DNA of 64,000 nucleotides, from contig CM114271.1 in NCBI GenBank assembly GCA_050084515.1, positions 23,994,001 through 24,058,000 on the forward strand. The letters run 5' to 3'. Within the stretch, counting starts at the first letter, position 1, and every line of letters begins with the position of its first letter. The notes below the pieces were generated by a model, which did no database searches, was not told the DNA's origin, and saw only the letters and a program-made list of their open reading frames with translations. Of the stretch, positions 9,846 through 53,408 are shown one piece after another. Made by a program: the position numbers and the translations under genes. Source of the DNA: Blasia pusilla. Taxonomy: Eukaryota.

Positions 9846-11586
9846 TAAATGTTCTGCAAAATAGTTTTGCAAGTTCTGCAAAATATCTCCAAGAAGGAAA
9901 AACTGCTCTCTCACATTTCCCGGGGCCTCAGCAGGTCATCCTCGACCTATAGAGCCTGTCCTCCACTACTCACGAAGGCACTCTACTAGATCCCGCCGAT
10001 CTATCCTAAAAGACGTGACAACTGTCGTGCGCATACACATCGCTACACAACATACATCGCTGTCATCGAACATACACACAAACACGCACGATCCCATGCT
10101 AACTCATGACATCCAAACAACGAGACAAGAAGTACCAAAATATCTCCAATCGCCCCCCTAACTGGTGGTTAGGTCCCTCTAACTCCAGATAGCAATCTAT
10201 CCCTACCTACCATGACATACATCTCTCGAACGCTAAGAGCAAGAAGGCCGGGTACTCATGTGGCCCCATCGTTAGTCGTCTTCTTGTCATCCATGTCACA
10301 GACACAAGTCGGAATGTAGAACTACCTACTCTATGTACATGTGGGACACATCTATTGTCCTTGAGGAACCCTAGTGAGAGATGACGTCAAACATGCCATA
10401 TGCCATCCTCTCGAACACCCATCACATACTAGCATAGTGGCTGCACCATAGGCGGAACCACACAACCTACGCCGCAAGCCTGCATGAACTATTGCTAAGC
10501 TCAGATCAACTGTACCGTCAATGTTCGGACCATGATATGGCGCACAGTTATGCATATGGTCCTTCCAAACCATACCATCGCGTCCCTCCAATAAGAGAAC
10601 ACCGGATGGTGGTGCGCCCTGCAATCACATCCAACATCGTGGGTGCCGTCTGCTGCTAGTAGACATAGTCTCCTTAATGAAACCTCCGGATAGTAGGTCG
10701 ATAACCACCTCCCCAAATAGTCGTATACCTCAACGTATCCCCATGTTGGGTAATCGCCAAGTTCTCAAACGCCATGGGCATCACTCTCCGAAACAACTCA
10801 GCCCTCTGAGAACATGCTCGCATCCATACATCAGGGTCATCAAGGTTCAACACCTCACCAGTATCTTGACAAATGGCCGTAGGTAAATCTGGCTCTCGGC
10901 CATAAAGCAACAAGTATGGTGAGAAAGACGCTAAGGATGCATGTCTGCTGAATCTGTATCCCATTGCCAACCACGGCAACTGAAGGTCCCAATCTCCTAG
11001 GTGACCTCTCTAGAGGCCATATCTATATAGTCCTCTCTTGACCCTGCACAAACCCGCTCCGATAGTCCATCCGCCTCAAGATGATCTCGCGAAATAGTGC
11101 GGTGGTCGATCAATGCCTGATCACACAAGGCTTGAAACTCCCCACGGAACTCTGTACCCTGGTTTGTCAACACCTCAGCTAGTGCGACCTAATATCTCAG
11201 CACTCGATCTAGGAAGGTATACGCTACTCCCTCACTCGCTTTGTCAGGCAATGCAACCAACTCTATCCATTTCGAGAAGTGCTCGACCATCACCAACACA
11301 TAACGACTATGGCGCTCCGTCAAAGGCAAAGGTCTTGCAAAATCCAAACTCCATCTATAACCTAAACCCATAATCGGAAGTGGATGCAACTATGGAGTCG
11401 GAGCATTGAACGATGCTTAGACTTGATCACACACCATGCATCTGGCAACAAATTGCTGAACGTCAGTCTGCATGCCTCATCCCCAATTTTGAATCTGGAG
11501 CCAGTTGTACGTCCGCTTCACTCCAAAATGACCCAACTCCTCGTGGGCATGACGCACCAAATATGCTCTCTGCAAAGGATGAAGCA
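9845..11586 (-). mobile_element. Gy-1 3' part: integrase, PHD, PPT, LTR segment X (10148-10023) and part of segment Y
   Basis: HEELGHFG, WSLDFA, LCGSAYGAATMLVCDGCSRGWHMAC; purine tract at ~10151-10160 followed by TG at 10148; continues in frame from the fragment ending at 32753 (VVLHPLQRAYLVRHAHEE). Confidence 0.85.
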
Positions 11587-11954
11587 TGTCATGACCATAC
11601 GGATTATGTCGTAGAGTATAGTGTGCTAGTAGAGGCCATACCTTATGTAGGGCCGTAGTGTCTAGGTAGAGATGCGATTTCATACATAGGGTTGGGGGTT
11701 ATTCACTTGAGGGTGACTTTTCCAGTAGGCCCCGCTCTTAGGTTGGAGGATATAAGGTGGAGTGCACTCAAAGAACAATTAGTTCTTTGAGTTGAGCCTG
11801 TTGCGTTGGGAGTTAGCCTTGGTAGTGAGTAGAGCTCTTGGCTATGGTGTTTCCTGCAAGCTTCAACCTAGATTCTCCCATCGTGGAGTGGGTTTGGCTC
11901 AATTGTATGTGATTCTATACGTGTTTTATGACAGTAGGTCTTTCACGGATTTCA
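11587..11954 (+). repeat. Gy-2 5' terminal repeat segment Y (368 bp; TATA/R/U5), starting TGTCATG after the AGCA target duplication
   Basis: Near-identical to the reverse complement of 32860-33227; TATAA at 11751; ends TTTCA and is followed by the putative PBS. Confidence 0.85.
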
Positions 11955-11965
11955 CTCAAAGAACT
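11955..11965 (+). promoter_or_regulatory. Putative self-priming primer-binding site of Gy-2
   Basis: CTCAAAGAACT is the exact reverse complement of AGTTCTTTGAG at 11781-11791, 30 nt after the TATA start. Confidence 0.7.
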
Positions 11966-12124
11966 GAAGTAGATCGATGGTAGCTTCGATTGTAGATCAG
12001 TGGGATCTGGTTAGGGCTGATTGTGTACTCAGCCATGGATGTTCGTGGCTTGTGGCCTATGTTGGAGGTGTGAATCTAGTGAGTGGTTGGTTGGGAAAGA
12101 AGCGCCTTGCTAAGAGCTTTCCAA

Positions 12125-15100
12125 TGTCACATCTGAGTAGCCGATAGGCCGAGATCTATCGTGGATAGGGCGTAGGAGCCAGCGGACTATCTTGAGTGTA
12201 ACTTTGTCCCACGGTGTTGGATGAGGTTGAGGATAGGTCCATTGTGTCAGGAACGTCGTTCTTGACAACTTTCATGTTGAGGTCTTTTACAGCCGGGTGA
12301 CTTGTTGACCAGGTCACCCGCCCTTGGTAACCTGTGCGCGCAGGTTACCAAGGGAAGGGCTATTTTTAGGGGAAGAGCCTTTTGACTCTTCCCAACCCTA
12401 TATAAGAGAGGAAGATGGCTTTCCTAAGCCATCTTTCTCATGTTGGGCCGTTGGAGCACCTCCCTTGTACGTGTGTGAGCTAAGACTAGGGTGCTAGCGT
12501 CCGGATTCCTTGATAGCACAGGGTGGACGAGGCTCGATATGCCGATGTAGATTGAGGAGTGGAGTTTTAGGCCGGGTGTGCCGTTTTTACTACTCTTTAT
12601 TTTTATATGAGAAAGATGTCAGGGGGCTGGTGGGAATTCGTTGTTTGCAGGTAGGCAAGCGAGTTGCCTTGGTCGGGAGCCCCTAGAGACGTGTGTGTGA
12701 CGTTTTGTGTGTCATTTTTCTGTTCGGAAGGCCGTGGGCGGAAGCGCTATCTGTTTTTCTCAGATTTTGCTGGTGCGGATTGATGGGGGATAGCAACAGG
12801 GTGTAGCGCAGGTTGTGTCCCCAGGGAGAAGAGTTAGAGCTTGCAGCCGCCAGGGGGCTGCCAAGTAAAGCGGCCGGTCTAGGGTTAGGCACGCGGCAGG
12901 CGCAAGGGCGGCGATGGGACGGAGCGACGGGCGCCCCCCGCATTTAGGGCCCAAGGGGCTTGCATGGGGCCCCGGGCCCAAGTTCCCCCTCTCCCCCTCC
13001 AACGTGGTAGCACGAACCATAGTCGGTTGGGCAGTTGGTAGCACGGACGAGGTCGGTCAGGCGAACGCGGTGGCGGATGGGCAACGTGATGGCAGGGAGG
13101 ACGTCGACGTGCTGAGTGACCGACAAGTTGGACAGCGGGCGTGACATGATGTTTTTGGGGCGCGACAGGGCGTTGCGAGAGTTGACGATGGAGGGGGTGT
13201 GCATGATGCCGACGGGTTGTCCGCATGACCTGTTGGGAGGATCGCGTGTTGGTCGAGGGGAGTGTTATGTCGCGGAGATTGTCATATCATGTGGAGGAGT
13301 GCATGTTGCGGTGCAGAGTTGAGGGCGTGATCAGGTTACCCATTCGAGTTCCTTTTCCCGCACTTGTCGTGTGTGATTGAGAGTGTTGGGTATCGGGTAG
13401 TAGCTGGTGCTAGATGGGTGCAGTGACGGTGACAAGTGTAGATTCTTTTCATGTGTAGCATGTTGGTGGATATCTGGCGGTTGCGAGTAGGGGTCATGTA
13501 TGACCCGAGAGAGTGTCGCTAGGTTAGGTGAGTCAGTTGGGAGGCTCATGGTGAGCCCGAGTGTTGAGCGTGCGTGAGGCCGGGTATGTCATCACGGGAT
13601 TGATGTTAGCATAGGTGAGCTAGTGAGGCGTGTGGGAGACTCTCGGTGAGTCTGAGTGCTTGAGCGGGTGAGACAGGGTTTGTCATCACGGCATTCTTCC
13701 AGGGTTCGGAAGAACGGGGTAGTGCGAGCAATAGTAGTGGTGTGACACGGAGTGGAGTGAGATACCGAGGAGTTACCAGTGAGGAGCTCCCTCGACATCC
13801 ATCCGTGATTGGATTCATCACTGGACACTGGGTCTGGTGACGAGATCATAGACAGAGACAGTAGTACTTGGCAGGAGATGGACGACATGGGCCATCGGGG
13901 CATGCGTCGTTTCTCAGGTGCAGTGGGCACCATCGACTTAGATGATTTTATCCAGGAGTTCGACACATGGTGCGACTTCCAGGAGATACGGACCTCGACA
14001 CGGTTCAACCCTTTCATGGCATGGAAGGGGTTGTTCCAGCACTTGGAGGGTCCTCTGATGGATGACTACATGGAGTTTCAATCACTATATTCAGTAGAGA
14101 TCGATGCCTGGAGGATGTATTGGGCTCCAGGGTATGTGTCCACTAGTGGTCGCGAGGCATATGATGGGATTGTCAGAGGAGAGAGACCCACACCATCAGC
14201 CCGGAGACTAGATGGAGAGGAGAGCAGTGAGACAGGCCATGTGGCAGAGACCTCTGGTGGTAGAGGGCCACCTAGCTTCAGCCCCACAGTGGAGTTCTTC
14301 CGACAGTTGGGGAAGAGCTACCATGGCGTACACACCGACAAGCTGAAGAGTCTACAGGATTTTCAGCGACGATCAGGTGAGAGTATGAGAGAGGCATTCA
14401 CACGCATGAGGAGGCTGATCATTGCTACGTTTGGAGTGACTGAGGCGCAGTCAGTCTAGTATTGGTATGGGGTTCTGGACCGAGAACTACGGAGGAGAGT
14501 CCGAGATGCGGTGCTGATTCACACAGCGAAGCCCACATTGAAGGTGGTCTTTGAGTTGTCTGAGCGTATTGAGCTCAACATGAGTGAGGAGCAGGTAGTG
14601 ACCGCTGGATTTTAGGGAAGGCACGGAGCTGCGAGCAGCTAGTGTGACTCCAATTTCTACCTCTTACTATATCCCCTAAGATTCATCCTTGACTTCTGGG
14701 AGGAGACTGTTGCTTATCGGCCAGGATGGCGGTCAGGGGACGGCCGGATGAGTCAGTTACCCGTGTAGTTTATGCGGGACGAGATGGTCGATCACGAGGA
14801 GAGTCTGTGACCACGTTGGCAACTTTCACAGGTAGTGTTAGCTGGCCAGGAGAGTTGTTGGAGGGGAACGCACATGCGGAGGATGTCCAAGTAGCGGATA
14901 GTCCCACGGAGAGACAGGCCATGGCGCGTGTCTCTTCCCATGTTGGCGAGACCTCTTCACCATTGTGGGGTACGACTTGAGAGCTACAGAGGAGTGCCGA
15001 CGACCTCGTGGCAGGCGTGGAGTCATGGTTTTATCCCACAGCCGCGAGAGTCACATGGCAATCGAGCTCTTGGAGTGGAGACGATGACCCCACTAGATAC

Positions 15101-18100
15101 CACACCTGTTGTGTGGCATTGCCCAGAGGAGGGTGCTAGGGTGTTAGATCTCTTTGGAGGGATTAGCACCGGATTGGCTGCACTATTGCAGGCGGGCATA
15201 CGGGTGCATCAGTACCTTTATGTGGAGAGAGATGAGATCGCGCGACGAGTATCATTACATCACATGGCGAGATTGGTCCAGAGGTATCCTGAGTTGTTGT
15301 CGGTATCTACAGTACGGGGATACCAGCATACGCTACCCGCCGACATCTCTTTGGTGGGGGCGCAGGATCTGGATAGAGTTGGCACCATTCATTTGGTGAT
15401 TCTTTGGATGGCCATGTCGGGTCATTCATCGGTGGCGAGGATTTGGATTGCAGGATCCCGGGTCGGGATGTTTTGGGAGATCTTTGCGAGTAGTACGACA
15501 ATTGCAGAGAGTCGATATGTTCTCAGTACATTTTGGAGAACGTGCCGTTGTTGGGAGACACTCGTGCACGTGTGATGACGAGTGTACATCAGGTGAGGTC
15601 CTGGTTGGGACCTGCTGTGTTGTTAGATGCAGCGAGAGTTGGGTCACGTGCCCATCATCCATGACTGTGGTGGACGAACCTGATACCATTAGAGGTAGTG
15701 AGTGGAGCATACAATGGAGTCCAGAGAGCACCACATCTCACAGTGGATGCTATTTTGGGCTCAGGGCGTTGATCTCAGGTGGTGACACGCGATGATAGAC
15801 CACCGTTGGCCACGGCCAATAGGGTGGGGGAGTTGAGGGCAGCCTTACCTATGTTGGTGAGCTTCCCAGCATCCCAAGCCTTACGTCAGGGAGGGCCAGG
15901 CATGATTTGGGATGAGGTGACCGGAGCATTGGAGGAGCCTACAGCAGATGAGCGCAAGCGCACCATGGGGTTCACTACCGGTACTACGGCGGTGCCAGGG
16001 ATGACTGAGGCATCACGGAGACAGGTGTTGGGGCAGGCGATGGACCTCAACTGTCTCACATGGATACTCAGCCTAGGTATGGCTGAGCAGAGACGGATGC
16101 GAGTGTCATCCATGCCGTCACATCCACGAGTTGGACCATTTCCTACAAGGTATGTACAGGCATTGGTTGGGGGCGAGACGAGGAGAGATAGGCACCCATA
16201 GACTTCCTGGGACGTCGTTCGAGCAGAGAGTGTGAAGGTGGCTAGATTAGCACATGTTCCTTTTTCGGATGTCAAGCATGGTGTAGGAGGTCAGAGTGGA
16301 GTGGCTGTTGCGAAGGTGGCTAGGGTTGCTACATAGCAACCAAAGCCGGAGGTTGCGTCCTCTCCGAGTGAGGTCACAATGGAGACTTGGGAGCCTGTGA
16401 CAGGTCTCAAGTTGATAGGAGGAGAGCGACGGCAAGTTCACAGGTTTCAAAGAGGGCATGTCAGTTGTTTTGCCTTCATTATGAGAGACTTGGGTACGCT
16501 GAAGGGTCCGGGATACGGATTGAGTTGGCTAGTGATACGCCGATCTTTCGTCGACCCTACAGGTATTTTGATATGGAGCGAGCCTTGATTGAGTGAGTCG
16601 GGGACTTTTGGAGGCGGGACTTGTGGAGTTATCACATGGGGAGTATGCATCCGCCCACGATCATGCCGGCGAAGAAGGAAATGTATGGCAATTGGACGAA
16701 TAGGCGGATGTGTGGAGATTACCGTCCTATCAACCGACAGACGAGGTCAGATCGGTATGCCATGCCTACTCCTGAGGAGATCTTTGATGCGGTAGGGCAT
16801 GCAAAGATCTTCAGTACTTTAGATCTCCGTGTTGGCTATCATTAGCTTCCTATCAGGTTGGAGGACAGGGAGAAGGGGATAGATCGGTTCGGGAGAGATT
16901 GCTTGTATTAGTGGCGGTTCTTACCATTTGGGTTGAAGAACGCGCCTGCGGAGTTTCAGAGAGTGATGGATAGGATTCGGTGGCTTGGATTTTGTGCGAT
17001 GTTACATAGATGATATTCTTATCTTGATTCCACGGTTGAGGAGCATGAGCGACACTTGAGGAGGTGTTTCGGCGATTGCAGTTACATGGACTGAAGTTAC
17101 ATCCAGGCAAGTGCAGATTCTTTCAAGAGCAGATTGAGTACTTGGGACACACCATATACCCGAGTGGGTTAGGCGTTCAGCAGACGAAGGTAGAGGCTAT
17201 TACGCAGATTCCACGCCCTACAGATGTGAGTCGAGTCCGAGCATTTCTTGGACTGGCGAACTTCTATCGACGGTATGTCAAGGGTTTTAGTGCGATCGCA
17301 AAGTCTTTGACCTTGTTGATGAGACTTGATCAGGTTTGGTTGTAGGGAGATGATCAGGAGCGAGCATTTCAGGAGCTCAAGGACAGGTTGACGTCCTCAC
17401 CCATTTTACAGAGACCGGTTAGGGGTCGCCCACTCCAGTTACATACGGATTGGAGCATGTTGGGTCTAGGAGCAGTGCTTACTCAGAGGGATGACGAGGA
17501 GAGGGAGTTCGTTGTGGCTTACGGGAGCCGATCGAACGACATTGCAGAGGCGAAGTACAGCTCCTACGAGGGAGAGTGCTTGGCTATAGTGTGGGCCGTG
17601 GCACATTTTAGGTGCTATTTAGTTGGCAACCCTTTCACACTTATCACTGATCATCAGCCGTTGAGGTGGTTGATGGAGTCCGACAAGCTTACAGGAAAGC
17701 TTGCTAGGTGGGCTCTATTACTACAGGAGTATGAGTTTGAGGTGGTTCATAGGCCAGGTCGGCTGAACCAGGATGCGGATGGGTTGAGTCGTAACCCATG
17801 TCCGAGTCAGAGAGACGACACAGGAGCTCGATGGCACGGAGAGAGTGATGAGGAGATGGTACCCGGTTGGCATGCATCTGCCTATCTTTGTTGGTCGACT
17901 ATGGCGGTCACCCCACGGTGATGACTCCAGTGGTGGGATTGGATGATGAGTCTTTGGATCCGGAGGTTAGTGAGGAGGCGACAGGTGGTCGTGACGACGT
18001 GGAGGTTGTGGAGTTCTTGCGCACTGGCGTCATTGAGAGTACAGTGAGTGCTAGGGAGCGGGATCGGATCCTAGAGAGAGTCAAGAGGTTCAGGTGGGAG

Positions 18101-19341
18101 GGGACTCACATTTTGCGGGTATGGGGAGATGGTAGGATACGAGTGGTACCTCATCCTTCCTAGCGAGCACGTGTAGTGCGACATGCCCATGAGGAGTTGG
18201 GACATTTTGGAGTAAAGCGCATTTACGCCTTACCTGTGTTGATATTGGTGGCCCGACATGCATACTAGGGTACAGCAGTCTGTGGCCAGATGTATGGTAT
18301 GTGACAGAGTGCGAGCATCCTTCAATGCTCCCACTCCGCAGTTACATCCTTTGCCGATTATGGGTTTAGGTTATCGGTGGAGTTTAGACTTTGCGGGACC
18401 TTTGCCATTGACATGGCGTCATCATAGGTACGTGTTGGTTATGGTGGAGCATTTCTCCAAGTGGATAGAGTTGGTGGCACTACCAGACAAGGTTTATGCG
18501 TTTCTAGATCGTGTGCTTAGTCACTTTGGTGCACCGGCAGAGGTGTTGACTGAACAGGGTACCGAGTTCAAGGGAGAGTTTCAGGCCTTGTATGATCAGG
18601 TGTTGATAGATCACCGCACCACGTCCAGAGATCATCCTGAGGCCTAGAGTGATGCCTATGGCCTTTGAGAACTTAGCTATTGCCCAACATAGAGATACAT
18701 TGAGGTACGCGACCATTCGTGGGGGAGGTTATCGTCCAGGGATTAGGAGGTTTCATCCTGAAGATTACGTGTATTTACAGCAGGCGGCACCCACGACGCT
18801 AGATGTCACACTGCAGGCGCCGCGATCCTACGTGTGCGCGAGGTATTACCGACCGGAGTCCTCATGTTGGAGGGACGGGATGGTATGGTTTGGAAGGATC
18901 ATGTGCGCAATTGTGCCCCTTGTCATCTTCCGAACGTAGATGGGACGGTGGATCCGAGCTTGGCAGTGGTACCTGCAGGCTTGAGGTGTATCTTGTGCGG
19001 ATCTGCGAGGGATGCAGCCACCATGTTGGTGTGTGATGGTTGTTCTCGAGGGTGGCATATGTCATGTCTGACCCCCCCCTCTTGATGTGGTACCCACGGG
19101 ACGATGGATGTGTCCGAGATGTGTATAGGGTAGTAGGTCATGTAGAGAGATGTGATATTTTCTATCTGGAGTTGGGGGGATCTAACTGCCAGCTAGGGAG
19201 GCGGTTGTGTGATCTCCATGTATATGTATGAGTTGATTTTTGTACATGTGTGGATCGACCCGTGTGTGGGGAAGATCGGTGTTGTGTGGTGTAGATGTGA
19301 CAAGCGATGTATGCTGTGTAGTGATATGTATACGCACTACA
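12125..19341 (+). mobile_element. Gy-3: DNMT3-PHD Gypsy element nested in the leader of Gy-2; TG...CA ends, CCAA TSD; gag 13809-14620, protease deleted, DNMT ~15120-16100, RT/RH ~16380-17810, IN ~18160-18930, PHD ~18985-19130
   Basis: CCAA|TGTCAC at 12121-12130 and CACTACA|CCAA at 19335-19345; RMCGDYRPIN, FSTLDL, YIDD-like RT motif, HTDWS, WSLDF; PPT at ~19195-19203. Confidence 0.85.
15120..16100 (+). pseudogene. DNMT3-like C5 methyltransferase domain of Gy-3 (frameshifted)
   Basis: RVLDLFGGISTG (motif I), YLYVERD (II), ENV (VI), ERKRTMGF and RRQVLGQAMDL (IX/X). Confidence 0.85.
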
Positions 19342-22300
19342 CCAATGTGCTTTAGATCGCCGGATTTCGTCAAGGGAGTTGGAAGTTATCAAGGATTGAA
19401 GATTTTGGTTCGTGTTCGACGGTTTTCTGATGTGGAGAGCTTGGAGTGTGGAAGCTCTCTTGAAGTTCATCCAGATTGGGTGAGAGGTTCCTATTGCTAC
19501 TTGTATTTTGATCTCATGTGAAGCTATCTGCTTGAGTGTGTGGAGCGTTGCGGATTTCTGCGTGCATGAAACTGGGCGGAAGCGCTGTCGGATTTGCAAT
19601 TCTGGAGGTGTATGGACAACAGGTTTGTCTTATTTTTAGCTCGGAGTATAGAGTTTGGTTGTAGCTGATTTTTTGTGGAGAGATAGCTATGGTGGTCAAT
19701 TGAATTTTGGTTGAAAAAGATTCAATTTTGGTTGAGGATTTGTGGAGTAATTGCTGATTGAAATTTTGCGGACTAGCTCAAGGTCAGCGGATCGAAGGGG
19801 CTGGTTGGTTGGTGACTCGTTCATTGTTGGAGACGCCTATCCCATTGGGGGCGCCCTGGTTGGGCCTCTCTCCATAGAGGAGCATGGCAAAGCATGGCGA
19901 ACGGGGCATTTCTCGAGCATTTTGAGGGTTCGAGGCAACTCGTGGTAGCTCGGGGCAAGTGGGCGTGAGAGGCGGACTAAGGAGCAAGGAGCAAGGAGCA
20001 AGCAAGCAAGCAAGCTTGCTAGCTTGGGCGTGAGGCAGTTTTTGCAGGATTTGTGATTTGAGTGTTGCATAACTGGTAACCCATCTTTGGGCTATTCTTC
20101 CTGGAAGACGCTTAACTGCTGAGTTCTTAACTATGCTAGTGTACACACTGTTGTAGCTCATTTGGTGCTATTCGGAGAGGTGTTAGGCGCCTTATGCATC
20201 TCAGGTTTTTGGTTTATGGACCTCTAGCACATAGTACGGTGTAGCCTCTCCATGCAGGTGATATTTTCAGGTGCTGCGAGTTCGATTAGCACGTCATCGA
20301 CCCGCGGCGGAGTAGCTATTGCGTTAGAATTGTGTGGTGGGTTTTGTGGATTCAGGGGGCGCCACGTTTGGTGGATTTTGTTACCTTGATTTCCATTTGC
20401 GATTGGAGGATTGTCGTTGGACTTCCTATGTTTGGATCCCCTCCATCGTTGCTTCTTGCTCGCGCGCCCATTGTTAGGGTTGACGCTGATTCCCAGAGTA
20501 GTGTTACTCCTGTGTGCTACCAAAGAGTGAGGTGGAGTGATGACCGATGAGACCGTGGGAGGCTTCTTGTGGTGATGACAGGTTAGGTTGCCCACACCCA
20601 TAGCTAGTAGAGCTAGAATAGTATAGCGACATCGACGTCACTTGGTTACTTAGTGGTGATAATTTGGTGGTGGTGCGGCATCGGCGTTGGTCATCACGGA
20701 GCTATCGGATGGTGTGGTTGGGGACCGTGGTGCGGACAATGGTGGTTTCACACGGAGTAGAAAAGGTAGTTGTACACACGGAGTCATGTACGGTTACCTT
20801 TTCCACTTCCGACGGTTGATGAAGAGGAGGACGATGGCGTTCCAAACACCGAGTCTTCTACCTTGTTATCGAGTGTTGCAACTCCATTGATTTGGGACAT
20901 GGACGGGATATATGGGGCCATGAAGGGCCCACGATGATACTCGGGTGCAGTGGGCACCATTGAGTTGGAGGACTTCATGCAGGAGTTTGATACATGGTGT
21001 GATATGCAAATATTGCGGAACGCCACGTTGTTTACATCCTTCTTGGCTTGGAAGGGGTTGTTTCAGCACTTGGAGGGACCACCCATGGATGATTACCATG
21101 AGTTTAGGAAGGACCATGTTGCTGAGATTGAGGCGTGGAGACAATATTGGTCTCCAGGCTATGTGTCTATCACCCATGGTGGTATTGGTAGTAGTGCTCC
21201 TACTATGCCAGCCAGCCCGACGTTGAGTGGTACGAGTACGAGCCGGAGTGGGGGTACCAGTGGAGGTACCCATGGAGGTACCAGTGGGGGTACTAGTGGA
21301 GGTACTAGTGCCCCACCATCGTTCAGCCCAGTTGCAGAGTTCTTCAAGAGGTTGAAGAAGAACTATCAGGGAGTGAAGATAGAGAAGTTGAGGAGTCTTC
21401 AAGAATTTGAGCGGAAGACTGGTGAGAGTCTTCGTGAGGCATACACTCGTATGCGATGCTTGATTTCAGTTACCGAGGGTGTGACTGAGGCTCAGGTAGT
21501 CCAGTTTTGGTATGGGATCTTGGACAAAGAGTTGCGCCGCAGGGTAAGTGATGCTACTCTTATGAGTGATGATTCACCCACATTGACCCATGTGTTTGCT
21601 TTATCTGAGAAGATTGAGCTTAACATGGTGAAGGAGAGAGTGGTGACATCCGTGATTCAAGAGGGGATACAACTACTACTTCTCGTGTGTTCAGCACCCC
21701 ACCTCACAGTCTCGTAGTAGTGGTGGTGGTAGTAGTAGTGGGAGTCGTGGGGGGTACACACGACCTTGGTCAGGTCCTAGAGGGACACTTGCGCAGAGAC
21801 CATTGCATTCATTTGCTGCCATGCAGCAAGGACAGTCATGTTGGACATGTGGAGGTGATCATGTTAGGAAGTTTTGTCCCCAAGAGGATGGAAGACGGAC
21901 TTTGGAGGATGGGCCTCAGTCAGCCCCAACTCAGTGTGATCATTGCGGGAGACCAGGTCATCCTCGAGAGCGTTGCTTTGATCTTCATCCACAGTTGAGA
22001 TCAGGCCGCGGCCGTGGTGGAGTAGCTCCGAGAGGCTGAGGTGGTAGGGGTGGTAGAGGTGGACCAATGGTTGGAGAGCCTACGGTGGCTACCCCTACCA
22101 CTACGACAAAGTCAGCTATGGCTGCCAGGATTGAGCAGTTGGAGCAAAAGTTGGCTACTATGGCTGGTATCCAGCATAGATCAGGTTCGGGAGCAAGGGC
22201 TTCCACCTCTTATGGAGGGGATGATCTCTCTTATATGGCGAGTGCAGCACAGGTTGAGGCATTAGGTGTAGTTACGAGAGGAGCCACTCGAGCGTCAGAG

Positions 22301-26689: not shown

Positions 26690-27263
26690 ACGTATAGCTT
26701 ACTCCTTGGCGATATTGGTGGCGTGGCATGCATACTCAGTGCAGTAGATTGGTGTCACGTTGTATGGTTTGTGACCGGGTGAGGGCATCATTTAATGCCC
26801 CTACACCAAAATTACACCCCTTGCCTATTATGGGGTTGGGTTACCGTTGGAGTGTGGACTTTGCGGGACCGTTACCATTGACTGTACGACATCATCGATA
26901 TGTGTTGGTGATGGTGGAGCACTTCTCCAAGTGGATTGAGTTGGTGGCATTACCGGACAAGGCAAGTGAGGGAACGGCGTATGCGTTTCTGGATAGAGTG
27001 CTTAGTCATTTTGGTGCACCAGCTGAAGTGCTGACCGACCAGGGTGAGTTTCAGGGTGAGTTTCGTTCGTCCTATAGCTTACTCCTTGGTCAGTATTGGT
27101 GGTGTGGCATGCATACTCAGGTGCAGCAGTTGGTGTCATGTTGTATGGTTTGTGACCGGGTGAGGGTATCATTCAATGCCCCTACACCAAAATTACACCC
27201 CTTGCCTATTATGGGGTTGGGTTACCGTTGGAGTGTGGACTTTGCGGGACCGTTACCGTTGAC
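26690..27263 (+). repeat. Internal duplication of ~190 bp of integrase (26690-26885 repeated at ~27070-27263)
   Basis: YSLLLG...MHTQ...CDRVR.SFNAPTPKLHPLPIMGLGYRWSVDFAGPLPLT occurs twice, ~380 bp apart. Confidence 0.85.
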
Positions 27264-27264
27264 C

Positions 27265-29644
27265 GGAGGTGCGGGAAGAGGAGAGGAAGAGAGGAAGAGA
27301 GGAGAGAGGAGAGAGGAAACTACCTTCAACCAAAATAGATACTTTTTTTTTAAGAGAGTTTCCGTTGGGTTGAAGAGAGGAAAGTTTTTGTGTGAATTTT
27401 TTTGCACTTTTTTGTTCATTTATTAAGCAGTCCCATAGTTTTTTTTTCCTCTTCCATATTTTGGCAACTCCTCTGAGTCCGACAAGTTGCAAATTGCACA
27501 AAATTTAGAAAACTGAAAAATCAGTGGAATCATAAGTGTGGAACCAATCACTTTTTCCATCCAAGGTCTGGAAAAAATCTATCATTTGCCCCGGGCTGAA
27601 TAGAGTTCAAGCTCAAAGTGAAGGTTCAAGAAAAATAAAAGTACAATCTAAAACTTCATTTTGCATCCTCAAAGTGGTTTGTTTAAAATACTTCGCACTT
27701 CTTTGAGGGACAGAATTGGTTGGTGGATTCCTACTCCTACCTCCGACTCTCTTAAAACTACTAGCAACACATAGTATATGTGCTTACAAGGGAAGTACCT
27801 TTTGCCACTTGTCTCTCTTTGGACAAAGTCATCACATGAACATGTGGGAAAGCAAAAGATGTGCACCACATACACCCCTGTGACACTTGAATTTACAGTG
27901 TTGTTCCTAACCCAATACATCCTTCCTATTCCATTGCCACTCAAGACATCTTTCGTGGCGATGATCTCCATTTTTTCCTCCCGAGCTGATGCAATTAGCT
28001 TTGCTCTCTCCACCGTTGGCCTACACATTTTGTTTCTCTTCACCCCATTTCTAGACTCAAACAGAAATAGTGGATTGAGATCATCCACCTTCTCCGGGTA
28101 CATGTTGACATTAATCTTGGGTTGAATACGAAATGCGAAGGTCTTTGTAATGCGAACATGCTCCGAACTTCCCCCGTCTACGAGTGTGAAACCGGCACTT
28201 GTAAGATTGTCCACTTCGTCTTGAGTGCAGTTCGTACCTGCGGCGATGGGCCAAATCGTGGGGGTATTCCTCAGAGCTCCAATGGCAACCGGATAAGACT
28301 TTCGGAAAGCGCAAGATTCATTTGGGCGGAAGAAGTACTTCAATTTATCCTCGGTCCTCGTGAAACGATCAAAGGTTTTGAGTCCCCAAAACCCAGTCAG
28401 TGGTCGTCCAGTCCTTGTACGGTTCTTATTTAGGAAAGTGCCGCATGCTCTCCTAATGCCATCAAATCCTGCCCTGCAGGTGGGTCCATGTCCTGGGTTG
28501 CTCCAAGATATATGCCACCGTTTGAGGTTGCAATCCACCTCCATTACCGTAATCCCATATTGTTGAACCACCCCACCGACCGGATGTTGCGAACTTCCAG
28601 CAACGGAGGGCTTTTGAAATAAAACATTCACTGATTTTGGAGAAGTAACTCCATCACAGATTTGGGACGGGTCTGGGGTCCCCGAATACGTGGGCGGCGT
28701 ACTTTCCTCATCCAAATCAATCACTGGATTAGTTCCTCGATGCTGCCTCTTCACCTGCCTGAAGTCAATATACTTATCTGGTCTCCACGAGTCTCGCTCG
28801 GACTGCTCTACCACCATCTGTATGGGACATCTTGAAACCCGCCCACGAATGTCCCCACCAATGTGTACATCTTGCTCGAGGGGAGTTCCAGCTACGCACC
28901 GGTTGAAGGCTTCCACGTACATTTTTTCATCACCAGATCTCACAGCAGCCCTGACATAGAGCTCGTAGATCGACGGCCCCCTTCCTTTTGTTACGCCTTT
29001 TATGAGGAAGATATGGGATGCTGCACACTGTAGCATTGCTCTTGCCTGGTCTTGTTGGCATGCCTCCACAAGTGAAATTCTTTGGCATGCTTGTGACGAT
29101 CTCTAGGAGGAATGAACACTTTCTGCTCCACTTGTGTTGGGGCAGAGGGCATTTTCATGAATGTTCAATCCCTGCAACGACGACAATGTTAGAAGGGAAC
29201 AAAAATAACTCAGCAGTCAAAGACATAAGCTACCTGTCGGAACCAGACGGGTTGCAAGGCCGAGGCATCCCATGAACAACTCTGCGACCCGTCGGGTCCC
29301 GACGTGTTGCAACCCTAAACCCACCTACTGCAACCCATCGGATTCAGACGGGTTGCAAGGCCGAGGCATCCCTTGAACGACTCTGCGACCCGTCGGTTTC
29401 CGTCGGGTTGCACACTCGGATTTGACCAAAATTCTGGATGCAACCCGTCGGTTTTCGTCGGGTTGCACACTCGGGCAACCCGTCGCATCCGAATGCTTGC
29501 TTGGTTTCTTCGGTTTGAAATCCCCATAGTTCCCACGCTTCTCAACTTGAGCTGCAACTTTACAAACAATTCTCAACGTGAGCTTGACAAGACAAAATAG
29601 TGAACTCACCTTCCGCATGAAGTTTCCCCATTGTCTCATACGTA
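27265..29644 (-). mobile_element. MULE-like DNA transposon, end carrying the transposase C-terminus (catalytic E, SWIM finger); intron 29609-29172
   Basis: VRMRQWGNFMRK / GLNIHENALCPNTSGAESVHSS* ... CSCDDF...YFPCKHIYYVLL (SWIM CxCxnCxH); GT-AG intron; terminus next to the target duplication CCGTTGAC(C). Confidence 0.8.
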
Positions 29645-29647
29645 CAG

Positions 29648-29728
29648 AAGTGGGAAAACTCACAAACGTGGGAAAGCGCAGACCCTTGTTACCACAGTCA
29701 ACGGTGGTCGATCATCGTGCCTCACTGC
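29648..29728 (-). mobile_element. Short Gypsy DNMT piece belonging to Gy-5, separated by the inversion
   Basis: VRHDDRPPLTVV...FPTFVSFPTS continues into YKEAGPGLVWDDQ at 44688. Confidence 0.75.
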
Positions 29729-29729
29729 C

Positions 29730-32700
29730 AGCCAGATCGTGCAGCAATATCTATATATGGAGATTGATGATGTTGCGAGGCGCGCTTCACTTCACCATGT
29801 GGCGCTATCACGCCTCCATTTTCTCGACTTGTTGTGTGCGTCCGCCATTCAGGGTTACCAGAGTTCCCTACCGAGGGACATTTCATTGTTGGGGGCGTAG
29901 GACTTGGAGCAGGTAGGGACCATAGACTTGGTCATTGCTGGTTGGCCGTGTCAGGGCCAATCGAGTGTTGGACGAGATAGCGGGTTAGCTCACACTCGGT
30001 CCAGGTTGTTTTTGGAGATGATGCCGGATCTTGCAACCTTTACATGAGCATCACTCTCGTTCTCCAACATACATTTTGGAAAATGTGCCAATTTTGGGCG
30101 ATTCGAGGTCCCGTGTGGTGACGAGTGCACATCAGGTGCGCGCATGGATCGGCCCAACACATGGATCGGCCCAACAGTGTTGTTAGATGCGGCGAGTGTG
30201 GGTTCATGAGCACATTGCCCGCGTCTTTGGTGGACCAACTTGGTACCACATGAGGTATTGCGGAGGGCTTATGCAAGAGTGGAGCGTCCCTCCAATTTGT
30301 TGGTGGATTCTATATTGGATCCGGGCCGTCGATCACAGGTAGTGAGGCACAATGATTGACCATCGTTGACTGTGGTCAACAAGATTGGCATACCACGAGC
30401 CACCTTTCCCATATTGGTGAGTTTTCCCGCTTCCTATGCATTTAAGGAGGCCGGATTTGGCTTGGTTTGGGATGACCAGGTATAGAGGTTGGTGGAGCCC
30501 AACGCCGATGAGCGAGAGCGAGCAATGGGATTCCCCACAAGAGTGACGGCAATAGCGTCACTATCGGAGGTAGCACGACGTCATGTCTTGGGTCAGGCGA
30601 TGGACCTAAACTACTTGACATGGATTTTCAGCTTAGGAGTAGTTGAGCAACGTTGTTTGAGGATGCGACATATCACAGTTGTTGCGTTGGTGAGCCCCAT
30701 GCCTACCGAGACGGTTGAGGCAGTGGATAGGGTCGAGACTCGAGGAGATTGACACACCAGGAGTGATCGGGAGAGACATCCTTGGACTTCTTGGGATGTT
30801 TTGCATCTCGCTCAATGTACACCAGGAGATGATAGCCACAACATTGAGCGTGGTTCCGGGTATTGCACATGGAGATGAGAGTTATGTTGTTCGAGACAGG
30901 GTTGCACCATAGCAACCACCGGCATCCGTGCCGAAGAGTCCTATTGTAGTCACGATGGAGACTTGGGAGCCAAATATGGGCCCTGAGTTGACAAGAGGAG
31001 AGCAGCGTTGGAAACACCAATTCCTTAGGAGTTATAGAAGCTGTTTTGCATTTAGTATCCATGATTTGGGTACGCTGAAGGGTCCAGGGATCCGCATTGA
31101 GTTGTCGAGTGACACGCCGATCTTCCGACGATCCGAAAGATACAGTGACATGGAGAGGGCTCTCACTCAAAGTAGGAGCTAGGACTTGCTTGGAGCAGGA
31201 CTAGTGGAGATGTCGCATGGAGAGTATGCATCTGCCACTATCATGCCCACCAAGAAGGATGTGCATGGCAACTGGACGGATAGGCGAATGTGTGGAGATT
31301 ACGGACCTATCAATTGGTAGACAAAGTCCAATAGGTATGCCATGCCCACTCCTGAGGAGATCTTTGATACGATTGGGCATGCAAATGTCTTCAGTTCATT
31401 GGATTTGTGAGCCGGATACCATCAATTGCCTATCAGATTGGAGGATAGGCAACAAACGGTATTTTGGGGCATCGATCCTCACGGGAAGGATTTTTTGTAC
31501 CAATGGCGGATCTTACCATTTGGGTTAAAGAACGCCCCGTCTGAATTTCAAAGGGTCATGGATAGGATCTTGGCAGGTCTGCATTTTGCTAGGTGTTATA
31601 TTGATGACATCGTAGTCTCTAGCGCCACGGTTGAGGAGCATGAGCGACATCTAGAGGAGGTGTTTCGACGATTGCAATAACATGGGCTGAAGCTACATCT
31701 AGGCAAGTGCAAATTCTTCTACGACAAGATTGATTATTTGGGTCATACGATATATCTTGGGGGCCTTGGTGTGCAGCAAGCGAAGGTAGAGGCTATTTCA
31801 CGCATTCCACGCCCTACAGATGTGAGTCGAGTTCGTGCATTCATGGGATTGGCAAACTTCTATCGATGGTACGTCAAGGGTTTCAGTTTGATTGCAAAGC
31901 CGGTAACCTTGATGACCAAGGTGGATCAGGAATGGCATTGGGGGGATGAGCAAGAGAGAGCATTTTAGATGCTCAAGGAAGAATTGACGTCCGCACCCAT
32001 ATTGAGGAGACCGATCACGGGACGTCCTTTCCAATTACATACTGATTGGAGCATGTTGGGGCTTGGAGCTATGCTTACTCAACATGATGATGATGGTAGA
32101 GAGTTTGTGGTGGCTTATGCTAGTCGCTCGAATAATGTTGTAGAGGTGAAGTATAGCTCGTATGAGGGTGAGTGCTTGGTTGTAATGTGGGCTGTCGCAC
32201 ATTTCAGATGTTATCTATTCGGCAATCCCTTTACCATCATTACTGATCTTCAGCCACTTAAGTGGTTGATAGAGTCCGACAAGCTTATAGGGAAGCTTGC
32301 GAGATGGGCTCTTTTGTTGCAAGATTATGACTTCCAGGTGGTGCATAGACCTGGGATGCTCAACTAGAATGCAGATGGTTTGAGACGTAATCCATGCTCG
32401 AGTCAGCGAGATGCGACTAGAGCTCGTTGGCATGGTGAGATTGATGAGGAGTTGGTGCCAAGATGGCGTGCGTCAACCTATTTGGGCTTGTTGGCTATGG
32501 AAAGCCAAATTACTGAGACTTCGATGGCGAGGTCTAATGGAGAGTCCTTAGATGCAGAGGCTAGTGAGGAGACAACAGGTGGCCGAGACATTCACGACGA
32601 TGGAGTAGTCTTGGAGTACCTGCGTACTAGCAGCGTCGCGAGCGCAATAGGTGCTAGAGAGCGGGATCGGATCCTACAACAAGCCAAAGAGTTCCGGTGG

Positions 32701-32753
32701 TAGGGCATAAATGTGCTGCGAGTGTGGGAGGATGGTAGAGTGTGTGTAGTGCT
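29730..32753 (+). mobile_element. Gy-1 middle part: DNMT (from motif II), RT, RNase H, start of integrase
   Basis: QYLYMEIDD, IAGWPCQG, ENV, ERERAMGF, LPFGLKNAP, CYIDDI, HTDWS; ends at TGCT (= AGCA TSD of Gy-2). Confidence 0.88.
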
Positions 32754-33333
32754 TGTCGTGCGAATCCACATCGTGATACAACATACATCGCTGACATACC
32801 ATACTCACATACATACATAACATAGACGAGAGCATCCACAAACACAAGTGTACCACAACTGAAATCCGTGAAAGACCTACTGTCATAAAACACGTATAGA
32901 ATCACATACAATCGAGCCAAACCCACTCCACGATGGGAGAATCTAGGTCGAAGCTTGCGGGAAACACCATAGCCAAGAGCTCTACTCACTACCAAGGCTA
33001 ACTCCCAACGCAATAGGCTCAACTCAAAGAACTAATTGTTCTTTGAGTGCACTCCACCTTATATCCTCCAACCTAAGAGCGGGCCCTACTAGAAAAGTCA
33101 CCCTCAACTGAGTAACCCCCAACCCTATGTATGAAATCGCGTCTCTACCTAGACACTGCAGCCCTACATAAGGTATGGCCTCTAGTAGCACACTATACTC
33201 TACGACATAATCCGTATGGTCATAACAGCTGTCGTGCGAATCCACATCGTCATACAACATAAATCGCTAACATACCATACTCACATACATACATAACATA
33301 GACGAGAGCATCCACAAACACAAGTGTACCACA
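32754..33333 (-). repeat. Gy-2 3' terminal repeats X-gc-Y-gt-X (X = 33333-33230 and 32857-32754, 104 bp each; Y = 33227-32860)
   Basis: Two near-identical X copies flank Y; the PPT AGGGGGCG directly precedes the first X; the element ends CACGACA|AGCA. Confidence 0.88.
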
Positions 33334-33409
33334 ACTCGCCCCCCTAACTCGCGGTTAGGTCCCTCTAACTCCCAGGTAGCCCTATACATCTACTACATGC
33401 TATACACCT

Positions 33410-50100: not shown

Positions 50101-51562
50101 GGTCGTGAAGACAACTCCTCCAATCAGCAAGTACTGCTCCCGTGGTACTGACAATGCTCAAATCTCCCCGATGTGCGGTGCGGGTCCAGCGGCACAGAAC
50201 GGCTACAAACAGCACAACACTCGGGAATGGGGTGCGGCTCTTGGTGGCATACCCTCCTTAGTCAAAAAAACGCAATCTGCTCCTAGTGATGGTGCGGCTC
50301 CGCGATTGAGACAGTGCGGTGCGGCCACAAGCGGCACGGCACGGCAATCAGCGATGCGTTGCGGCTACGGGCGTCACAACATGATACGCGATCGTCGTCG
50401 AGCGGGTTCCAATCACAACATAGCAAGTGGAAAAGAAACTACGATCGCATGAATCCAAAAAGGTGACACTGTCGAAGTCGCGAGTTAACGAGTGGTGATG
50501 ACTCATATAGACTCACCAAGTACACTAGTGGCCGCCCTACCTGGCCACTCGTGACTGGTCCTTGTCTTGAATAGCGGCTGCGGCAGCGGTAACTCATGTT
50601 GACGGCGGAAATGGAAATTGATAGCGGCGGCGACGGCTCTAACAAGTGGTGGTGGCAGAGGCGATGGCAAAAACTCGCGGCGGCGACAACGGCAGCAGCA
50701 ACGGCAACTGACAGCGGAAATGGAAACCAATGGTAGTGATGGCAACAAGTGGTAGCAGTAGAGGCAGTTTCGGCAAAGGGCGGAAATGGCGACGGCGCGG
50801 ACGGTGACGGCATCGCCAACGACGGTGGTTGCTTTAGGGTTTCGCCATTTTTACCCTAAAAATTGGCAGCTTGCAAAATCAGCCATAACTTTTTTTTCTC
50901 GCAGCTCCAAATTACGCACTGTCTATTCCACAACGTGCACGGCTTCACTATCTACAACGGTGTCAAAAAATATTTTGGATCGGAAAATCCCATAAAAATT
51001 GATGGGGATTGTCGTAAAGCCCAACGTCTCTTTCTCCTACACAAAATTCGGCTGCGGTTCCGCGCTGATTTCTCCTGAAAAAAACCTGAAACCTATCAAA
51101 ACATCAATTAGCAAGCTACAAGGCACTTTCAAGAGCACCGGCATGGGAAACCCGCCCCCATACTTAATTTCTAACCAAAATTTGGCAGCGCTTCTGCCTA
51201 TCACTCTTTTGACACAAAAAATCGGCAAAGAAACATCAAAATCAAGCAGCTCTTGCTCTGGTGAGCACTCCCATGAGCCGTTGAACGGGGCACACGGTCC
51301 CCAACCTGCCCCAACAGCGAGTGACAAGTGAGCGCCTCCATTGAAACTCTCTCACTCTTGCATTCTCTCTTTGTAAATCACGATCCAATCTCTCTCAACA
51401 CCATGGCTCTCAAATGTGTGCACTCTCACATGTCTCTCTCTTTGAAGAAGAAGGAAAAGTATGAAGATCCTTTATAAGGAGATGATATCCAACATTCACT
51501 AGAGTAGACTTTAAGGTTTAAGATGGCGAGTTGCGTTAGAAAATGGGTATAAGAATGAACCA

Positions 51563-51688: not shown

Positions 51689-53408
51689 ATAAAATAAGGT
51701 GAAATCTCTCTCACAACACTATAGCTCTTACATGTGTGCACTCTCACATGTCTCTCTCAATGTCAAACCAAACCCACTCTCCTAATGAGAGGCTTGGGTT
51801 ATATTCACAAGGCAAGGGATCATAGCTCTGCCGCCTCGTGTCAAGAGGTTCAACAAAGAGAGAATGAGCTCTCAAGCTCTCTCTCCTTGAGGTATATCCC
51901 TCCCCCCTCCCAAACTCTCTATATGGTAACCTATGCTTCCAAGTCACCTCCTTGGCTCTTTGACCTAGAAAGAGACATAAAGCCACTTGTATAGTCTATT
52001 AGATGAAAGCACAGGTAGAGATATTTAAAAGCCATGCCTAATAATCTACTAGCTTATAATTGAGGAGTATGAAGAAACTCCTTGGTGAAAATCTCCCACT
52101 CAAGCTCCAAGTAAAAATCTGTTGTATAATCTCCACCAAAGACCATGCTTCGCCACTTGAAAGGGTGAAAAACTTCTAAGAGCTTTTTCCAGAAATTTAT
52201 CCCAATGCCAAGACAAAAGACACTTAATATGCAAGGAGGTTTTCCAATGGCCCCTTTATCTCTTGAGTTGCATCCCTTAGAGGAAGAACTAAAACCCAAT
52301 AGTAAGAAAGTAACAAGAGACCTCAAATGGGATGAATTTCTCAAATTTCTAATGAAAAATGAAATACTTGTTACTTGTGTGATAGGACGAAAAGCAACAA
52401 AAATGCATATAAAGTCTAGGCCAAGGGAGACCATGATGGAAAAAGATCAATTTGGCTCAATTTGTCAAGGTCCAATGGAATAAAGCATATCATTTGGAGT
52501 GAGAAAAAATCATGTAAGATCCTAGTGAAAGTACTTGAACCCACGATGAAGAAGTTAAAACAAAGAGAGCACGTTCATACAAAAGCTAATTTATGAGTAA
52601 TGAACATTTTACAAAAGATTTGATACAACTTAACATTAGAAATATGGTATGTAGTGCGTGGGAGGAAAGTTGTTAATAAACTAATAAGTAAGTTTTAAGC
52701 GAAATTGGCATCAAATAATTCCATCCACTAGACATCAAAAGAAACCTCACATCCAAATTGCCTGATTAAAGTAAAAGATGTTTAAGAATAGTTAGATGAT
52801 TCCTGCTTGGAATAAATTTGGCATATAATGTGAGAAAGGCGCACTTCATTCAGGAAATCGTGGGAAAACGATTTCCTGTAAATAGAATATTGAAGGCCTT
52901 CTTTCTTGGAAGTGGATTTTTTTTCCATTTTCTCCTACGGTTCAATATGAAATGAAAAGTTTTTTCTATCTTGGGAATCTTAGAGGAAAGTTGAACTCTT
53001 GTACACACCGTGTCTACCGTGTTTATCGTAGCCCCATAAATCATGCCCCGCGTTTCTTGAACCAAACAACCACCAATTGTTAAAGTCTGGTTGACGTTGC
53101 CATGTGATTATTTTCTGCCAAGCATTCAATACTTTCTGGTCCCCAAGTGTACTTGTCAACTTGAGCAGCAGAATCTACCGCTTCCAAGGAGTGCTTCGAT
53201 CCAATCGGCATCATGTATGAAGCTTAGCACACTTTTCTGCCGCTGTTAACATCAGGTAATCATTGTTGGTACATCTGTAACTTCCACCCCCAATAACTTG
53301 AGGGGAGGATACTTCGACATGAAAGCAATGAGATGTGAAGGTGTGACCGAAGTTCCTTTCTGACTAGATAATTGAAGTGAAAACACCCTGCATCTGCAAT
53401 CTTTAGGA

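Follow-up and report, generated by a model that had tools for sequence, protein, structure and literature searches.

In a 64,000-nt stretch of Blasia pusilla DNA (contig CM114271.1, positions 23,994,001 to 24,058,000; the window, below, is this whole stretch), two Ty3/gypsy retrotransposons, Gy-2 and Gy-3, lie one within the other. Directly 3′ of its 5′ repeat unit, A, each has a short sequence, P, complementary to a site, p′, inside that A. P is probably the minus-strand primer-binding site, in a Gypsy lineage whose own RNA serves to prime reverse transcription. A preliminary description of the window had proposed such self-priming on the model of Tf1, and the proposal has gained from the finding that the pairing lies at an independently mapped repeat end, recurs in a third sequence type and extends to 17 nt in metagenome relatives. 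Its further claim, that the first 11 nt of the mRNA are the primer as in Tf1, is one that we infer rather than observe, as are the cut, the priming step and the masking role of a hairpin discussed below. The parts concerned are:

11587..11954, forward strand: A1, the 5′ repeat of Gy-2; begins TGTCATG, terminates TTTCA
11751-11792, forward strand: within A1, TATAA (11751-11755), hairpin left arm (11766-11776), loop (11777-11781) and p′ (11781-11792)
11954..11965, forward strand: P of Gy-2, the proposed primer-binding site; 12 nt, exact complement of 11781-11792, adjoining the end of A with 1 nt of ambiguity
12125..12604, forward strand: unit A of Gy-3; begins TGTCAC, boundaries from loose ends of RNA reads
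12399-12443, forward strand: within this A, TATATAA (12399-12405), hairpin (12408-12421 with 12426-12439) and p′ (12430-12443)
12605..12618, forward strand: P of Gy-3; 14 nt from the first base after A onward, complementary to 12430-12443 with one G·U

The two pairings are where they had been reported, and both are slightly longer. In Gy-2, 11955-11965 (CTCAAAGAACT) complements 11781-11791 within an exact match of 12 nt (11781-11792 with 11954-11965), which continues with a G·U and then an A-U pair. In Gy-3, 12607-12617 (ATGAGAAAGAT) complements 12431-12441 within an exact match of 12 nt (12430-12441 with 12607-12618), which reaches 14 nt (12430-12443 with 12605-12618) when one G·U is counted. 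Stranded RNA-seq of the host species (three runs, X22, X23 and X24, chosen by species label, with reads at least 90% alike) has C for T at 12606 in 6/6, 7/7 and 13/13 sense-strand reads, so that in the family majority the G·U becomes G-C and all 14 Gy-3 pairs are Watson-Crick. The distances to the TATA motifs also hold (TATAA at 11751 is 30 nt before 11781, TATATAA at 12399 is 31-32 nt before 12430/12431), both local hairpins do fold (11766-11776 with 11782-11792; 12408-12421 with 12426-12439), and neither repeat end is followed by the TGG of a tRNA-type site. The bases after A in the three sequence types are ACTCAAAG.., ATATGAGAAAG.. and ACAAAGAG.., the nearest TGG in Gy-2 being about 24 nt downstream. 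P and p′ are 173 nt apart in Gy-2 and 177 nt apart in Gy-3. ARAGORN finds no tRNA gene in the window and none in 22 of 80 metagenome loci with relatives of these elements, and a search of 11400-13000 against Rfam gave a single sub-threshold chance match (FsrA, 21 bits against a gathering score of 80).

Chance does not account for the pairing. When the whole window was scanned for exact inverted matches at 100-400 nt spacing and compared with 20 Markov shuffles, there were 80 matches of at least 10 nt against a shuffle mean of 16.2 (maximum 25), most of them in three tandem arrays; the inverted pairs of at least 12 nt outside these arrays are three, namely both of those claimed and one at 27348/27746 (spacing 398). 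In an anchored test the repeat end was fixed independently, a 12-mer starting at −1 to +3 of that end was taken and its complement was sought in the shuffled repeat. It was present in 4 of 20,000 shuffles for Gy-2 and in 3 of 20,000 for Gy-3.

The position of the pairing is as telling as its length. The ends of A were mapped without regard to it, from the junction of the second A with the second copy of another repeat unit, B, (A2|B2) in Gy-2 and from RNA reads leaving at 12604 in Gy-3, and the duplex starts, at 11954 and 12605, lie at or within one base of the ends so mapped. At the A2|B2 junction the base preceding P meets the base that follows the purine tract: B always starts directly after the purine tract and A always ends directly before P, with an ambiguity of 1 nt in the A end of two types and none in Gy-3. 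Since in the logic of long terminal repeat (LTR) elements the end of A and the start of B coincide with the start points of minus and plus strand, P is by position the primer-binding site.

A third sequence type, in which the A-type unit Z is the neighbour of another such unit, Y, is found on the minus strand elsewhere in the window:

51692..51896, minus strand: third A-type unit, Z; TATACC (51896-51891), hairpin, p′ (51866-51853), with a B at 51691-51566
51361..51374, minus strand: third P; 14 nt, exact complement of 51866-51853, after the A-type end (..GTGATTT) of Y

In Z, p′ is 30 nt past TATACC and about 174 nt short of the end of the unit. The A-type end of Y lies about 190 nt beyond the B of Z, and its P is followed by a conserved leader that resembles the leader of Gy-3 (0 of 200 shuffles attain the score). 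The left boundary of Z could not be fixed, and a target-site duplication, looked for there, was not found. The two neighbouring A-type units have in common a 56-nt block, about 89% alike (51758-51703 and 51440-51387, minus strand), and their upstream parts are unrelated. In all three types the leaders carry, 130-400 nt past P, a conserved motif, (G)GGCGGAAGCGCT, with the palindrome AGCGCT (12736-12748, 19575-19587 and 51225-51213, the last on the minus strand), which recurs in the metagenome loci L017 (at 2478), L054 (2411), L056 (4450), L029 (4625) and L037 (295) and may be a dimerisation or packaging signal.

Gy-2 and Gy-3 had been taken for two divergent copies. Their repeats, however, cannot be aligned as those of diverged copies would be: the R-U5 parts (the repeat and unique 5′ regions) have a similarity score of 20, which 168 of 200 shuffles reach, and a four-way MAFFT alignment was uninformative. 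The three types were compared with the TGRRCC behind p′ and the end of A as anchors. In all three, p′ stands 30-31 nt past a TATA motif, is followed by TGRRCC, precedes P by 173-177 nt and forms the right arm of a hairpin. Of the 12 core pairs, 9 (pairs 3-8 and 10-12) differ on both sides from type to type; pairs 1, 2 and 9 do not change. The earlier statement that structure is kept while sequence changes is thus borne out across types; it does not extend to the copies of one family, where the core is invariant.

This invariance was seen in relatives from metagenome contigs, a scan of which gave 164 pattern matches, 93 confirmed relatives and 80 loci (duplicate assemblies among the rows are L007/L008, L054/L056, L017/L038 and probably L020/L045). 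A Gy-2-type A, about 70-75% identical to that of the window, is present in 19 of the 80 loci, and the A, leader and B of Gy-3 type in 0 of the 80; a scan of viral contigs for more copies gave no relative. In several air-metagenome runs, too, roughly a quarter to a third of the words sampled from 11587-12700 are present, which is only a lead. Among 11 copies of A1 with a mean column identity of 77%, the longest invariant run, of 13 columns, is TTTCACTCAAAGA (11950-11962), the U5 end together with the core of P. In L054/L056 the duplex is 17 nt long, and the extra bases complement p′ and the loop of the hairpin rather than copying its left arm. By this extension into the loop, P is p′ in inverted copy and does not duplicate the left arm in direct orientation.

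What follows unit A depends on what precedes it. Among 24 detected starts of A, those preceded by flanking DNA (10 rows, from about 8 distinct loci) all lead to P, and those preceded by B lead to B in 5 rows, in 2 more with a 20-nt filler and in L022 with a mutated B end; three rows have no recognisable end of A. The sole exception to the rule for B-preceded units is L023 (3361-3878), where A and P are followed by a reverse-complement copy of A that covers its first base through p′ (176 nt, 94%), and the element thus terminates in its own left end, inverted. Judged by its sequence, this looks like an integrated snap-back product, made when a strand ending in P was extended on p′, and the exact stop of the copy at the first base of A hints that a plus strand starts there. 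In L017 and L067 the whole hairpin of A1, with p′ and a few bases beyond it, is deleted (alignment columns 74-104), and the A2 of L017 retains it; such a loss is in keeping with the instability for which palindromes are known. Other inverted 10-12-mers, found ahead of RNase H in the loci L034, L048/L050, L057/L060/L063, L071 and L080 were discarded as chance matches (coding, dispersed repeats, or a family with ordinary LTRs).

The host transcribes the family, which is highly repeated. Sense RNA spans A, P and the leader of Gy-2, with the depth in X22 going from 149 to 57 over A and from 29 to 21 over 11936-12136. The end of a B precedes the Gy-2 A in 126, 154 and 114 reads of the three runs, and nearly all reads that enter this A from the left derive from B, as they would if transcripts of the upstream part of A came solely from the internal copy, A2. 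A joint that goes back 289 nt, 11904 to 11616, is present in 6, 10 and 8 RNA reads and in no DNA contig.

From these features the following course may be proposed. Transcription would start in A near p′, leaving p′ (pyrimidine-rich, 12-17 nt) in the 5′ part of the RNA, where it could fold back over some 175 nt of R-U5 and pair with P just after A. A cut behind p′, presumably by the RNase H of the element as in Tf1, would supply the 3′ end for minus-strand DNA, and a minus strand begun in this way would make the repeated unit A end at the base before the duplex. The plus strand would begin from the purine tract ahead of B and, on copying the retained primer, rewrite P from p′, by which the complementarity could be kept despite drift between families. 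The left arm of the hairpin, lying in the U3-like (unique 3′) part of A, would be found upstream of p′ only in the internal copy in A2; there it would mask p′ and leave only the 5′-terminal p′ to pair with P. Predicted folds bear on this last step. RNA that starts at or just before p′ forms 12 of 12 p′:P pairs in Gy-2, with a mean pair probability of 0.95-0.96, and minimum-energy folds from the same start give 10 of 12 in Gy-3 and 17 of 17 in L054. RNA that starts at 11748 or 12400, and so contains the left arm, folds into the local hairpin with 0 of 12 p′:P pairs; in L054, with its 17-nt duplex, RNA that contains the left arm is not predicted to switch to the hairpin. Folding that depends in this way on the start would fit a masking role of the left arm.

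Several observations weigh against self-priming as proposed. RNA 5′ ends at 11781 and 12431, which the preliminary description had predicted as start sites, are not reflected in the RNA-seq, where no pile of 5′ ends is reported at either; the only pile reported in A is at 11748, 3 nt ahead of TATAA, with 27 molecules at a depth of 111 in X22 and 24 at a depth of 118 in X24, and none is reported in X23. (Piles are reported from one fifth of the local depth, weaker ones could be hidden, and RNA-seq is not a start-site assay.) If RNA does start at 11748, the hairpin fold just described predicts that it would not be primed. The invariance of the core within the Gy-2-type family means that there is no compensatory change there, and in the older copies L008, L011, L012, L014, L026 and L044 the pairing has decayed, with 13-16 of the 17 pairs left. 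The p′ and the P of the third type sit in two neighbouring copies and not in one unit, which somewhat weakens that case. Finally, no model built accounts for the regeneration of A2-B2 in each cycle.

It is unlikely, though worth weighing, that the P:p′ pairing is a selected long-range pairing of RNA or cDNA other than a primer, closing R-U5 for packaging, dimerisation, strand transfer or circle formation, much like the internal complementary region of DIRS elements, with the minus strand primed otherwise. The anatomy of the repeats is that of tyrosine-recombinase (DIRS/PAT) elements (PMC5890265), which replicate via internal complementarity; RNA 5′ ends at 11748 would put p′ inside the RNA, and the palindrome-bearing leader motif GGCGGAAGCGCT points to further RNA signals nearby. 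Against it, in every type the last base of A directly precedes the duplex, which is the signature of a minus-strand start, no other candidate for a primer site is present at that place, and L023 shows P as a 3′ end extended on p′. That a host RNA, either a tRNA fragment or another small RNA, primes at P, its complement in A being a by-product or decoy, is judged quite improbable even though half-tRNA primers are known in plant copia lineages (PMC6317226). Three sequences of P would need three host RNAs, none of them ending in CCA because no P starts with TGG, yet each P is perfectly partnered in the A of its own family, at a constant distance to TATA and to the end of A, and in L054 the complementarity runs 17 nt, into an element-specific loop.

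The least credible account is that the matches are functionless, being chance inverted repeats or leftovers of rearrangement. The window is indeed heavily rearranged, and 64 kb should by chance contain about one inverted pair of 12 nt with a spacing of 100-400 nt, as calculated from the window size. The shuffles with an anchored end (4 and 3 of 20,000) speak otherwise, as do the spacing, TATA distance and hairpin context alike in three types and the core of P, kept in copies that are only about 70-75% identical overall; by the anchored tests this account is close to refuted. Self-priming from p′ at P remains the reading that we consider probable.

The window as a whole is a nest of Ty3/gypsy elements, heavily rearranged by nesting, inversion and inverted duplications. 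The remaining parts of Gy-2, Gy-3 and the element into which Gy-2 inserted, H, are:

10018-11586, minus-oriented: host element H, this half
11583..11586, forward strand: left target-site duplication of Gy-2, AGCA, within the integrase region of H
11955..12124, forward strand: first part of the Gy-2 leader, split by Gy-3 and continuing at 19346
12121..12124, forward strand: left target-site duplication of Gy-3, CCAA; identical four bases at 19342-19345
12125-19341, forward strand: Gy-3, whole, inside the Gy-2 leader; A-interior-purine tract-B, without a second A
12619..19207, forward strand: Gy-3 leader and interior, with leader motif (12736-12748), gag, reverse transcriptase and integrase
14895-19207, forward strand: within this interior, remnant like a DNA methyltransferase (DNMT) (14895-15575), RNase H (17346-17921), PHD finger (18762-19085) and purine tract (19195-19207)
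19208..19341, forward strand: Gy-3 unit B, the right end; terminates CACTACA, with the target-site duplication CCAA (19342-19345) next
32750..33351, minus strand: Gy-2 3′ end, inverted; purine tract (33351-33337), B1 (33336-33230), gc (33229-33228), A2 (33227-32861), B2 (32860-32754) and target-site duplication (32753-32750)

The 368-nt A of Gy-2 recurs inverted at 33227-32860 with 96.5% identity over 368 nt. Read in its own orientation, the 3′ end consists of integrase, purine tract, a 107-nt B, gc, A, B and the target duplication, the two copies of B agreeing at 97% over 107 nt. H has its other half at 29739-32753, oriented the opposite way. AGCA has its reverse complement at 32750-32753, and E1, an uninterrupted homologue, carries a single copy of it; these matching junctions and the single copy in E1 make both copies of A parts of one element, Gy-2, the 3′ part of which was inverted after insertion. 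Uninterrupted sequence of the H family continues past 11586 in 34-36 RNA reads per run. The inversion, at about 27264-34530, took in the upstream half of H as well as the 3′ part of Gy-2; 26875-27064 and 34530-34338, the latter reversed, are 94% identical, and 26693-26882 is duplicated at 27073-27263. The 5′ end of H is absent from the window, 27264-29739 being by its look a DNA transposon. This stretch, possibly MULE-like, has subterminal repeats of a motif, GCAACCCGTCGG, and on the minus strand (27669-29102) a 477-aa open reading frame (ORF) with a weak match, below cut-off, to a SWIM zinc finger. The same motif GCAACCCGTCGG forms 64-67-nt tandem arrays, at places that include 36996-37250, 39435-40170 and 41700-42460.

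The limits of Gy-3 come from joints in RNA reads. Reads that match up to 12124 then resemble the window from 19346 (21, 11 and 12 reads in the three runs; the initial letters differ), reads entering at 12125 derive from the end of a B unit, and reads exiting at 12604 pass into the start of a B (9, 7 and 7 reads), the loose-end consensus behind 12604 being the B start at 19208. Together the joints at 12124, 12125 and 12604 set Gy-3 at 12125-19341. Within the window neither BLAST nor Smith-Waterman found a second copy of its 5′ repeat above shuffles; this repeat has no partner because Gy-3 ends in B, without a second A. A reading of 19350-19640 as the 3′ LTR of Gy-3 or as a separate 5′ end was dropped, since RNA reads link 12124 to 19346. 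Family RNA has CGCG where the window copy has TGTG (19346-19349), and C where it has T (12606). These differences are C-to-T changes at CpG-like sites, as expected of methylated repeats.

Gy-2 thus has split direct repeats in the order A1-interior-purine tract-B1-gc-A2-B2, with TG..CA termini and a 4-bp target duplication, and lacks the canonical LTR structure of two identical terminal repeats, its left end being A and its right end B. Complete elements of the form A1-interior-B1-A2-B2 are L054 and L017; 3′ ends of the form B-A-B are seen in L003, L016, L020/L045, L022 and the distant L051. A single B follows the purine tract in at least nine distinct 3′ ends, L012 being a complete A-interior-B, and in the metagenome loci this shorter form is no rarer than the full one. 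In the distant L051 and L080 a B-x-B repeat pair is at the expected place (in L051 a full B-A-B), with the 5′ end outside the locus. All five two-ended elements have a 4-bp target duplication (AGCA, CCAA, AAGG, TGTT, TCTC) and TG..CA termini, the left TG of L017 being mutated.

Standard reverse transcription would yield [B gc A]-P-interior-[B gc A], from which the integrated form differs by a shift of one B. The internal boundary B-gc-A resembles joined integrase ends (ACA gc TGT), and the A|B boundary resembles joined ends of reverse transcription. One may tentatively see in this a fixed circular permutation of the reverse-transcription product, a counterpart with a DDE integrase of DIRS/PAT replication, although we hold it rather doubtful. 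If so, the repeat unit delimited by P and the purine tract would be B+A, the ends used by integrase (TGTCATG.. and ..CACGACA) would lie at the internal CA-gc-TG palindrome between B and A, and the hairpin at the U3/R border would be a switch admitting only the 5′-terminal primer copy. Under such a permutation each integrated copy, in holding an internal ‘circle junction’ (A2|B2), would imply a joined-ends intermediate that integrase opens at one B|A boundary. Random opening of a two-repeat circle was rejected: it predicts A-B-A-interior-B, seen in 0 of the 10 rows with a flank-preceded A (about 8 distinct loci).

By Pfam, Gy-3 has reverse transcriptase, RNase H and integrase (rve, Integrase_H2C2) and, at the integrase C-terminus, a PHD finger (PF00628, E 4.5e-7). 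The closest named relatives of the RNase H ORF (17346-17921) are from liverworts, Riccia and Calypogeia at 81% and Marchantia at 72%, followed by Klebsormidium (K. nitens proteins included) and Closterium. Many relatives have the PHD finger PF00628, PF00385 being listed for one relative only, and several have a C5 DNA methyltransferase domain (PF00145, verified in P0055 and P0013). The ORF at 14895-15575 aligns over its residues 83-169 with the DNMT end of P0055 (BLASTP E 7e-12), and the decayed DNMT-like stretch of Gy-3 retains a motif-I-like DLFGGISTG; the window copies have no Pfam DNMT match, the similarity being by BLASTP only. On sequence grounds, the PHD finger and the DNMT-like stretch group the family with those Gypsy elements of streptophyte algae and liverworts that bear a DNMT, and its lineage appears to be that of KnitGypsy-Dnmt3. 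No chromodomain was found at the integrase of the window element, which has the PHD finger there instead, and membership in the Tf1/sushi-Tcn1 clade (chromoviruses) is not supported by the domains seen.

Self-priming has been demonstrated for Tf1 only and predicted for the Tf1/sushi group (Lin & Levin 1997 and Butler et al. 2001, as cited in PMC6317226). For plants it is predicted in Tcn1 chromoviruses and in TAR copia elements, 12% of the elements surveyed (PMC6317226), and Novikova et al. saw a primer site of neither kind in a Selaginella Tcn1 element (PMC2864245). In the main-text passages searched, nothing on priming in the DNMT/PHD lineage goes beyond these two papers and PMC5890265; the additional files of PMC6317226, which give the primer type per element, may bear on novelty. 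The logic of self-priming would here be at work in a different Gypsy lineage, one with a PHD finger, DNMT relatives and split direct repeats. What appears new is a hairpin that possibly distinguishes the terminal from the internal primer copy, and a set of three sequence types that is clean for the testing of compensatory mutations. The replication of integrase-bearing split-repeat elements becomes directly testable, and a transcribed, highly repeated family makes the experiments feasible. For annotation, LTR finders that assume two identical LTRs and a tRNA primer site will miss these elements or misplace their bounds.

The likeness to Tf1 of S. pombe, sushi and Tcn1 lies in the lack of a tRNA-type site, in a stretch after the repeat that complements a site near the start of R, in a duplex that closes R-U5 and in a pairing sequence that varies between families. 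The duplex is 12-17 nt here rather than the 11 of Tf1, and p′ doubles as the right arm of a hairpin, the left arm being upstream, an overlap that to our knowledge has not been described for Tf1. The primer of Tf1 is the 5′ end of its mRNA; here p′ is 30-31 nt past TATA, and the reported pile of RNA 5′ ends is at 11748. The Tf1, sushi and Tcn1 elements also differ in having a chromodomain and two identical LTRs where the present family has a PHD finger at the integrase and split direct repeats. TAR is, like this family, a plant LTR element with predicted self-priming, but it belongs to a different superfamily (Ty1/copia) and has ordinary LTRs.

The repeat order A1-interior-B1-A2-B2 is that of PAT and DIRS elements, from which the present ones are set apart by a DDE integrase, TG..CA termini and a 4-bp duplication in five of five complete elements, with no tyrosine recombinase seen. 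A close counterpart is KnitGypsy-Dnmt3 of Klebsormidium nitens, which has the Gypsy domains and whose repeats de Mendoza et al. 2018 (PMC5890265) describe as arranged like those of DIRS, A-coding-B-A-B. It shares with the window elements the Gypsy domains and the repeat order; there the DNMT is in pol, whereas the window copies come from a liverwort-like host and their DNMT part has decayed. The split-repeat anatomy of this lineage is therefore already in print, in one sentence of the part of that paper at hand and without boundaries or mechanism, and to it the present elements add base-level boundaries for the primer site, the purine tract and the integrase ends, along with target-site duplications and a candidate mode of priming, none of which that part of the paper gives.

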